The position numbers are program-made. A stretch of 64,000 nucleotides of DNA from an uncultured Planctomycetaceae bacterium (GTDB lineage: Bacteria; Planctomycetota; Planctomycetia; Planctomycetales; Planctomycetaceae): NCBI GenBank assembly GCA_963815195.1, contig CAWFGE010000018.1, positions 192,001 through 256,000 of the forward strand, in the 5' to 3' direction. How positions within the stretch are numbered: position 1 is the stretch's first letter; every line of letters begins with the position of its first letter. Positions 46,301 through 49,300 of this stretch are shown here, one piece after another.

Positions 46301-49300
46301 GCACTTTTAAGAATCCATTGTTTTGCCCACGGCCTCGGCGATCAGCCGGCATTGGGCCATTGTGTCCCGGAACGCCGCGGGCGTGAGGGTCTGGGCTCCG
46401 TCACTGAGGGCGTCCGCGGGGTGCGGGTGCACTTCCAAAATCAGCCCGTCGCAGCCGGCGGCGACCGAGGCCCGGCACATGGAGGGCACCAACGAAGCGA
46501 TCCCGGTGCCGTGGCTGGGATCGACCACGATCGGCAAATGCGTCCGCTCTTGCAGATAAGGCACCGTGGCCAAAGGCAGCGTGAACCGCGTATGCGTCTC
46601 GAACGTGCGGATGCCTCGCTCGCAGAGCACGACCTGCTGGTTACCCTGATCGAGAATATATTCCGCCGCGAGCAAAAACTCGTCCATCGTCGCGGAGGGC
46701 CCGCGTTTGAGCAGCACCGGCTTGTTCGTTTCCCCGACCGCCTGGAGGAGATGATAGTTCTGCATGTTCCGCGCCCCGATTTGCAGCACGTCGGCGTATT
46801 CCGCGACGAGATCGACATGGTGCGGCGTCATCACTTCCGTCACCACCGCGAGTCCCGTGACATCGCGGGCGGCGGCGAGCAGCCGGAGTCCCTCTTCCTT
46901 CAATCCCTGGAACGAATAGGGGCTGGTGCGGGGCTTGAACGCGCCGCCTCTGAGGCCCTTCGCTCCCGCGTCTTTGACCGCGATCGCGGTCTCCATGATC
47001 TGCTCTTCGCTTTCCACGGAGCAAGGCCCCGCGATCACTCCGACGTGCCCGCCTCCCATCCGCAGGTCCCGCACCTCGACCACGGTGCCTTCGAGCTTGG
47101 TTTCCCGGCTGGCGACTTTGTACGGAGCAAGAATGGGCACGACTTTCTCCACTTCTTCGCAAGATTCCAGAGTTTCCCGTTCGCCGTTGCGTTTCTCGCC
47201 GATGGCGGCGATCACGGTGCGTTCGGTCCCGACAATCACATGGGCTTTGAGGCCCAGGGATTCCACACGCGCAGCCATCCGCTGCACCATTTCCTCCGTC
47301 GCATGGGGTTTCATAACGACAATCATGTTTTGAACCTTTTTCAGAAAAAGACAGCGGATGATTCAACGCAAAAACAAAAAAGGCTCTGAAATCGCGAGCG
47401 ATTTCAGAGCCTGGAGTTTTGGAAGGTGTGAGTCAGACCAGATTTGGTCCCTGTTCCCCGCCGGCTCGGAAACCGCGCCCCGTAAACCAAAAATAAAACC
47501 GCCACGCGCCCGCATTGACGGGAGCGGTCGTGGAAAAGTTTTGGGTTAAGAGGGAGGAGGACATTTCAGGATTATTATTGCGGGTTTGTTGGTTCGTCTC
47601 ACCACCCCCTTAAGGTATCCGCGAACGGAAAGGAATGTCAACTCAAAAAAATCCAATTCGCTCGGCGAGTTTTGATTTGGTTGGTATCTGCTGGCGGATT
47701 GGGTAATATCGGTGGGAGTTGATTTGTTTCGCGCTCCATGAAGTTTTAGGAAGCGGCCGGAATTGATGGGATCAATGCAAAACCAAAGCGGGAACGACAG
47801 GGAACAGCGCGGCGGATTGATCGACCGCCGGGCGATGATCCAGGTGGGTTCGCTGGCGTTCGCCGGTTCGGTGCTGCCGGGGTTCGCGGCGGAATCGAAT
47901 GCGCCTCCGGTAACAATCGAACCAACGGGGACAGCGAAGCAGGTCTTGTTTCTGTGGATGGGCGGCGGGGTGACGCAGCTCGAATCCTTCGATCCCAAGC
48001 CTCTGGCCCCGGAGACCATTCGCGGCACGCTGGGGGCGATTTCAACCTCCCTCCCCGGCGTGCAGTTCGGCGAGCCGATGCCCCGGCTCGCGCGGATCGC
48101 GGGGGACTTGTGCGTCGTGCGCAGCTTCTCCCACGACAGCAACGACCATCTGCTCTCGCAGGTTTACACGCTCTCCGGGCGGAAAGTGAACCAGAGCGAC
48201 CTCTTCAAGCATCCGAACATCGGCTCGATCTTCTCCTATCTGTACGGCCCCCAAAACGGGCTGCCCGGTTACATCGCGGTGCCGGGGATCACCTGGCCGG
48301 GACCGCCGCCGCACAATCTGTTCGTGGGCGGCTGGCTGGGCGACCGTTATGCTCCGTTCGCGGTGGGCAACCCGCCGGAGTTCGCCAATTTCGTATCGGG
48401 GCCGAACCTCGAACATCCCGATCCGTTCAAGACCGAAGACCTTCGCCCCAAGGCCTTGAATCTTCCCGACGGTCTGTCGGCCGGGCGGCTGGATCGGCGG
48501 GTGGATTTGCTCAGCCGGCTTGATCAGACCGCAGCCTCGGCGGAAAAGACCCGGCCGGTCGCGGGAATGGAAGGGCATTACGAGTCGGCGATGAATCTGC
48601 TCACCGCGCCCGAAATTCGCGGAGCCTTCGACATCTCCCAGGAACCGGCCAATCTGCGGGACGAATACGGCCGGACGAAAATCGGCGGCCGCTGTCTGTT
48701 GGCCCGGCGGTTGATCGAAGCCGGGGCTCGGTTTGTGATGGTCGATTACGGTTACGATCCCGACTACGGCAACCTGTGGGACAACCACAACGCCGCCAGC
48801 CAGAAATTCCCGCACATCTCGGAAATGTGCCAGCGTCCTTACCATCTGGCCGGAATCGACCGCGCGTTTGCGGCACTCATCGCCGACCTCAAGAACCGAG
48901 GCCTCTTGGAAAGCACGCTGGTCCTGTTCCTCACCGAGTTCGGCCGGACGCCTAAGATCAACGCCCGCGGCGGCCGGGATCATTGGGGGGCGTGCGGTTC
49001 GATTTTCTTCACCGGCGGGGGGACCCGCGTGGGGCAAGTCATCGGAGCCAGCGACAAAGAGGCCGCGTATCCGACCACAAAAGGCTACACCCCCGCCGAC
49101 ATTGCGGCCACCATTTACCGGGCCGTCGGCCTCGAACTGGAACACCGCGTTTACGACCTGCAAAACCGCCCCTGGCCGATCCTCGGCGAAGGCCAGCCCA
49201 TCGACGGCGTGTTGGCATAAATCCGATCGATCAACCCTGCGTCTATTTCATCGGGAGACTCGGCATGCGGATGGCGTTGTTTGTTTTGCTCGTGCTGGTT

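Follow-up and report, generated by a model that had tools for sequence, protein, structure and literature searches.

The closest described counterpart of the element here presented is the aroR leader upstream of aroF in C. glutamicum, for which an attenuator with Phe-Tyr-Phe control codons was predicted (Mentz 2013, PMC4046766), and whose response, according to the summary of Neshat 2014 contained in PMC11802643, is to Phe, with none to Tyr. As in the locus analyzed here, an aromatic-codon leader peptide precedes a DAHP synthase gene, and ribosome stalling is described to raise transcription, as would be the case here. On the contrary, Phe-Tyr-Phe, no Trp and a Phe-only response are what those sources report for aroR, while the runs here contain four to seven aromatic residues, combine Trp with Phe and Tyr in 86 of 96 loci, and belong to another phylum. 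The likeness to aroR is, therefore, of function and position only.

The trpL-trpEDCBA and pheL-pheA attenuators of E. coli are outlined in PMC11802643, and the Rfam family Trp_leader RF00513 in PMC2659441. They share with the present element a control-codon leader ORF, an antiterminator overlapping the terminator 5' arm and an intrinsic terminator, but each senses a single amino acid and controls terminal-branch genes. Multivalent leaders are exemplified by thrL (Thr/Ile) and ilv (Leu/Ile/Val). As here, codons for several of the products in which a branched pathway ends are combined in a single leader, which controls the first enzyme of that pathway, although pathway and lineage are others and no Rfam sequence family is common to them; the ilv, leu and thr leaders are among those listed in PMC2659441. 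Table 3 of the same source lists a Shewanella aroF leader as 'Attenuator sensing tyr-tRNA', and putative attenuators before DAHP synthase-tyrA are noted for Vibrio in PMC1173090. These entries likewise place a predicted attenuator in front of a DAHP synthase gene; there, however, the target is a Tyr-specific isoenzyme of the I-alpha type, the hosts are Gammaproteobacteria and prediction is the only basis.

Regarding Planctomycetes, leader genes are treated in the relevant part of PMC4833913 only as regards reinitiation distance, and the main text of PMC2965389 has no mention of Planctomyc, DAHP or aroF. The literature covered, which includes few subscription papers, and Rfam gave no description of such an element for Planctomycetota, or of a Trp+Phe+Tyr leader. 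In the window here analyzed, that is, the whole stretch of 64,000 nucleotides from an uncultured Planctomycetaceae bacterium, a ribosome-dependent leader-peptide transcription attenuator very probably controls the DAHP synthase gene. As read from its sequence, it matches the testable features of a classical leader-peptide attenuator, protector hairpin excepted, and falls in no Rfam leader family. The novelty lies in three aromatic amino acids within one run, in the entry enzyme of the pathway as target and in a wide presence in Planctomycetota, the mechanism being a textbook one. The element gives this phylum a concrete and testable transcriptional control at the entry step of aromatic biosynthesis, represents an uncatalogued leader family missed by annotation pipelines, and, with its W+F+Y leader, would carry the known multivalent attenuators into the shikimate pathway, whose documented C. 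glutamicum case is Phe-responsive only.

Organization of the DAHP synthase locus

The features of the locus are collected in Table 1. The profile matches identify the downstream gene as DAHP synthase, as the survey's finding had it. PF18152 was found in a single copy in the own genome (G000, 94.6% complete), which is that of this enzyme; a second match in the same genome, of 38% identity and without the PF18152 part, is probably a KDO8P synthase. No type II DAHP synthase was found in G000 at that completeness. A conserved aromatic operon downstream was not seen in the homolog loci, the next gene differing between them. Elsewhere in the window, a fumarase-like gene (42387-40962, minus strand) appears split into the overlapping frames 42387-41047 and 41789-40962, which suggests a frameshift or an assembly error.

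Table 1. Features of the DAHP synthase locus, in window positions
Feature	Position	Strand	Description or basis
DAHP synthase gene	46307..47326	-	339 aa, type I-beta, carrying a ferredoxin-like regulatory domain at the N-terminus; PF00793, PF18152, NF006421 above cut-off
U-rich terminator tail	47371..47380	-	terminator scan
Intrinsic terminator hairpin (segments 3 + 4)	47381..47412	-	14 bp; 5' arm shared with the antiterminator
Leader ORF	47433..47564	-	43 aa + TGA, 44 codons including stop
Antiterminator 5' strand (segment 2)	47463..47476	-	in leader ORF, 7 nt past the last Phe codon
Control codons W-R-F-Y-F-W-F	47484..47504	-	read from sequence, within leader ORF
Putative -10 hexamer TACCTT	47612..47617	-	18 nt past -35; by-eye pattern in homologs
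Putative sigma-70 -35 hexamer, perfect TTGACA	47636..47641	-	read from sequence

The leader ORF had been placed at contig positions 239564-239430; the ORF and its 44 codons stand, its end having been set 3 nt too far (window 47430 instead of 47433), and the WRFYFWF run and the intrinsic terminator with its U-rich tail are found as described. The leader peptide gave no Pfam or NCBIfam match in a profile search, and its counterparts in the homolog loci of the first set (n = 96, see below) are 19-60 aa long. The terminator hairpin, with an energy of -22.6 kcal/mol, is separated from the DAHP synthase ATG by 54 nt in the window.

The TTGACA and TACCTT hexamers suggest a promoter ~40 nt above the leader ATG, with a start site predicted accordingly from their position. 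The pair escaped a consensus promoter scan because its -10 scores 3/6. By eye, a like -35/-10 spacing with TAnnnT recurs in the homolog promoters and in L003, and 68 of 94 loci contain TTGAC in the 150 nt preceding the leader start, versus 12 on the reverse strand. In the four RNA runs with the homolog L184 (family f27), promoter, leader and gene are all covered; these are assembled contigs, whose breaks are not readable as transcript ends, and they were counted neither in favour of the reading nor against it. As a separate observation, L003 (850-1500; G070, same genus) keeps promoter, leader and terminator intact with ~595 nt between terminator and DAHP synthase ATG, a spacer that holds three head-to-tail ~80-nt repeats and an inverted repeat.

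Conservation in Planctomycetota

Homolog loci were gathered from genomes of the family, class and phylum and from 80 named contigs, being top-scoring or hand-picked ones rather than a random sample. The layout rule asked for an ORF of 8-70 aa in which W, F or Y make up 4 or more of 7 residues and for a terminator hairpin starting at most 60 nt from its stop. This layout was present in 130 of 184 Planctomycetota homolog loci versus 2 of 184 reverse-strand controls. By group, it was found in 51/64 loci of the family, 16/21 of other families of the class, 20/36 outside the class (11 of these 36 from family f27) and 43/63 on named contigs, which bears out the claim that the element is kept across the family and beyond. 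L002 (a 38% match), L075, one duplicate and L160 are among the rows left out; L160, checked apart, has no leader.

In a first set, 96 of 136 non-redundant loci pass the rule against 2 of 136 reverse complements; when only the last 350 nt are considered, 89 of the 136 pass against 2 of 408 dinucleotide shuffles. This set leaves out five loci with less than 350 nt upstream, and its 96 passing loci include L075, judged a false positive. A chance meeting of a constitutive terminator with an accidental ORF would have to produce both these frequencies and a covarying alternative helix (see below), and with null rates of 2/136 and 2/408 its probability is practically nil.

Fifty-four of the 184 loci are without the element by the rule. 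Among them, only 22 have the end of a gene on the same strand less than 200 nt from the DAHP synthase start, and at least three do possess a leader, namely L003, where it lies 600 nt further up, and L163 and L176, which were left without a called terminator. In the leaderless loci L048, L049, L054, L058, L062, L069 and L193, the DAHP synthase gene stands behind another gene, apparently in one operon with it; this preceding gene presumably belongs to the M20 amidohydrolases, which it resembles.

The element is present in Thalassoglobus neptunius and on contigs labelled Planctomicrobium, Rhodopirellula, Blastopirellula and Pirellula, and was not found within 3 kb of the DAHP synthase gene of Kolteria novifilia. 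The enzymes of the homolog genomes are about 56% to 88% identical to the present one, and the terminator core is alike from Planctomycetaceae to families outside the class. Within family f77, the element is present in three genomes with a close ortholog, and in five large genomes with distant copies only (10 DAHP synthase copies) the leader-plus-terminator combination was not found over 1500 nt. A form of its own is seen in family f27, which lies outside the class (L136, L179-L188): all 11 loci have short Tyr-rich leaders of 10-31 aa, their terminator is an A/U-richer version of the same hairpin, and the antiterminator duplex is weaker, at -9.5 to -13 kcal/mol.

In the own genome, 822 terminator-like hairpins are preceded by 259 short ORFs, of which the leader alone has at least 5 of 7 residues W/F/Y. 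The survey's finding had counted two biosynthetic genes flagged genome-wide; this rescan returned the DAHP synthase locus and did not show the second gene. Leaders of the His, Leu, Thr/Ile, ILV or other types did not stand before any recognisable matching biosynthetic gene in the own-genome scan, as judged by eye from N-termini. When family paralogs of ~50% identity were taken as a control, the rule was passed by 2 of 20, both ORFs being tails of an upstream gene and neither containing W+F+Y; this control is weak because many paralogs are operon-internal. Such a second DAHP synthase copy (~50% identity) is seen in L138-L157 and L237-L241, often behind another gene whose C-terminus we take to resemble the ACT domain of prephenate dehydratase.

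Antiterminator and covariation

In a constrained fold of this locus, segment 2 (read 47476-47463) pairs with 47411-47398 through 13 bp with one mismatch, the duplex with the terminator 5' arm amounting to -19.1 kcal/mol. The end of the leader had previously been taken for the antiterminator strand; the actual partner of the arm lies earlier, just past the aromatic run. With this strand, the pairing signal, until now described as modest, becomes stronger: in the 95 de-duplicated loci of the duplex test, which still include L075, the median z against shuffles is -2.76, with 69 loci below -2. Segment 2 starts 2-15 nt past the last aromatic codon in 90 of these 95 loci (mode 8-9) and is a better partner of the arm than an equal-length upstream segment in all 95.

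Segment 2 and terminator arm also appear to fit each other locus by locus, own pairs having an advantage of 3.8 kcal/mol over foreign ones (permutation sd 0.27; the most extreme of 10,000 permutations = -1.03). In a sequence-only MAFFT alignment of 60 of the 94 loci, the 13 pairs of the helix between segments 2 and 3 (2:3) are 78.3% paired and accumulate 65 two-sided changes versus 17.4 when shuffled; none of 500 shuffles reached as high a count, which also tops all slid registers. The terminator helix in the 60-locus alignment has 97.2% of its cells paired and 104 two-sided changes, found in 11 of 12 pairs. Since relatedness inflates covariation counts in alignments, 84 loci were further arranged into 42 disjoint nearest-neighbour pairs with different arms, with the aim of limiting the effect of kinship. 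Upon swapping strands between such sisters, the own pairing was better in 33 cases, worse in 3 and tied in 6, while with the upstream control segment it came out better in 12 and worse in 24. Antiterminator and terminator are thus two mutually exclusive covarying helices. A variant arrangement occurs in L078, L083 and L215, where the leader stops 9 nt past the aromatic run and the antiterminator strand lies beyond the stop codon.

The reading of the region as a ribosome-dependent attenuator, put forward in the survey's finding, is supported at the sequence level by conservation, by the layout of promoter, leader, antiterminator strand and terminator, and by covariation. Exclusive helices of this kind might also be driven by a ligand or a protein, as in a riboswitch, a T-box or a TRAP-like system, the ORF being then incidental to a U-rich tract. 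The codon usage of the runs lends itself to such a view: they favour TTT over TTC (244 to 57) and TAT over TAC (95 to 43), preferences reversed in the long ORFs of G000 (TTT:TTC 28,889 to 47,039; TAT:TAC 15,439 to 19,126), so that U-richness itself may be selected. In addition, the ribosome-binding site at the leader start is weak in the homolog loci (median -2.35 versus -5.9 kcal/mol for the DAHP synthase gene). On the other side, the runs contain 153 in-frame TGG codons, the three internal indels, observed among 16 pairs of similar leaders, each have a length divisible by three, and no conserved aptamer-like structure is found upstream of segment 2. At gathering score, Rfam models gave 0 matches in 13 homolog loci, this locus showing only miRNA/sRNA hits of chance level, and neither a T-box (model search) nor a TRAP gene was found in G000, 94.6% complete, control genomes giving matches in the same searches. 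Overall, control by ligand or protein appears highly improbable. The preference for TTT and TAT, with usage compared to G000 only, may keep the run unstructured or slow its decoding. W+Y codons number 283 in the chosen frame versus 2 and 76 in the others, a test set aside as partly circular because the frame was chosen by aromatic score.

Ribosome position and the proposed switch

In the attenuator as proposed, transcription would start ~40 nt above the leader ATG and the leader would be translated as it emerges. Under a shortage of charged tRNA-Trp, -Phe or -Tyr, the ribosome would stall on the aromatic run, leaving segment 2, which begins just past its 3' edge, free to capture the emerging terminator 5' arm, so that transcription would run into the DAHP synthase gene. 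When the amino acids are plentiful, a ribosome one to four codons further on would cover segment 2 and then halt at the stop codon, short of the hairpin; the terminator would fold and transcription would stop.

These geometries were explored with a ribosome-walk folding model, in which a footprint constraint is imposed on transcripts cut before the terminator 3' arm. When the A site is placed on an aromatic codon, be it the first, a middle one or the last, 69-75 of 94 loci form 2:3 (75 on the last), dropping to 24 of 94 two codons past the run and to 5-7 of 94 three or four codons past it (7 at four); with other footprint sizes, evaluated for 32 of the 94 loci, the switch point moves only by 1-2 codons. 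In terms of this model, the spacing is suited to a switch in which segment 2 is left free by a ribosome stalled at the control codons and is masked by one that moves on. The leader stop codon is placed 16-53 nt before the hairpin (median ~27; 96 loci, the search allowing -12 to +60), and therefore a terminating ribosome would leave the terminator free.

The same model indicates that 2:3 still forms in 74 of 94 loci in the absence of a ribosome, and that with a ribosome at the stop codon it is still allowed at equilibrium in 38 of 94, this locus included. For the full-length transcript, equilibrium favours the terminator in at least 88 of 94 loci, whatever the ribosome state; read-through would therefore have to be kinetic, a kinetic decision being usual for attenuators.

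The trp leader of E. coli has a strong 1:2 protector/pause hairpin. A post-run hairpin has here a median energy of -9.3 kcal/mol and a median z of only -0.73, with 11 of 94 loci below -2 and 22 of 94 folding worse than their shuffles; in a wider window the median z is -0.45. The attenuator had been called classical, a description that remains appropriate for leader, terminator, antiterminator and spacing, and is less well supported for a conserved 1:2 protector, the signal being weak in both tests. In many loci, a C-rich stretch directly behind the run can pair with segment 2.

Stalling on the run could also come about if the nascent aromatic peptide arrested the ribosome in response to a free metabolite, in the manner of TnaC, rather than via uncharged tRNA. 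The run is certainly hydrophobic and often closes with W-F or Y-F, the next residue being T, P or S, yet there is free variation both in how W, F and Y are ordered and in the upstream sequence, and substitutions in the run affect all codon positions (7, 12 and 17 in 16 pairs). Moreover, the stall frees the antiterminator, so that arrest by the metabolite would switch the gene on with the product abundant, which is the wrong logic. A TnaC-like arrest is, consequently, considered very unlikely.

Codon content and the amino acids probably sensed

The runs of the 96 loci comprise 301 F, 153 W and 138 Y codons. Eight of them are without Tyr and two without Trp, and all three residues are found within the last seven codons in 77 of 94 loci. 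From this codon content, we lean towards an attenuator that responds to Trp, Phe and Tyr alike. A more restricted response, in which the same attenuator answers in practice to one or two amino acids, mainly Phe, and the other codons add little, seems rather unlikely, despite several features in its favour. Phe accounts for 301 of the 592 aromatic codons and closes the run in 72 of 94 loci; 10 of 96 runs do without Trp or Tyr, as 5 of the 11 leaders of family f27 do without Trp; and the Phe-Tyr-Phe leader of C. glutamicum aroR is summarised in PMC11802643 as responsive to Phe and not to Tyr. Against it, the three residues are retained in the last seven codons of those 77 loci across enzymes only ~56% to 88% identical, and in the folding model 2:3 persists wherever in the run the ribosome stalls.

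Coupling of transcription and translation

As a tentative picture, for which the odds are somewhat against, the loci would descend from an old homologous attenuator family spread across the phylum, each acting as a three-input OR gate for Trp-, Phe- and Tyr-tRNA, with no fixed protector, with read-through as the default of the untranslated leader, and with tight transcription-translation coupling. That transcription is kept spatially apart from translation has been proposed for some planctomycetes in the part of the literature represented by PMC5394234. The switch needs a ribosome close behind the RNA polymerase and, therefore, bears on that proposal, though indirectly, five large f77 genomes having no leader within 1500 nt of either DAHP synthase copy. 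If coupling is indeed tight, the element would constitute a ready-made in vivo reporter of coupling in the phylum.

Distances from stop codon to gene-end terminator are considered short up to 12 nt. In G000, 2 of 60 such terminators (60 of 5,790 genes, crude gene calls) lie within that distance, the median being 37 nt. Short distances are used as a proxy for uncoupled transcription, as stated in PMC7858274, and the two cases among 60 would correspond to what coupling of translation to transcription leads one to expect.
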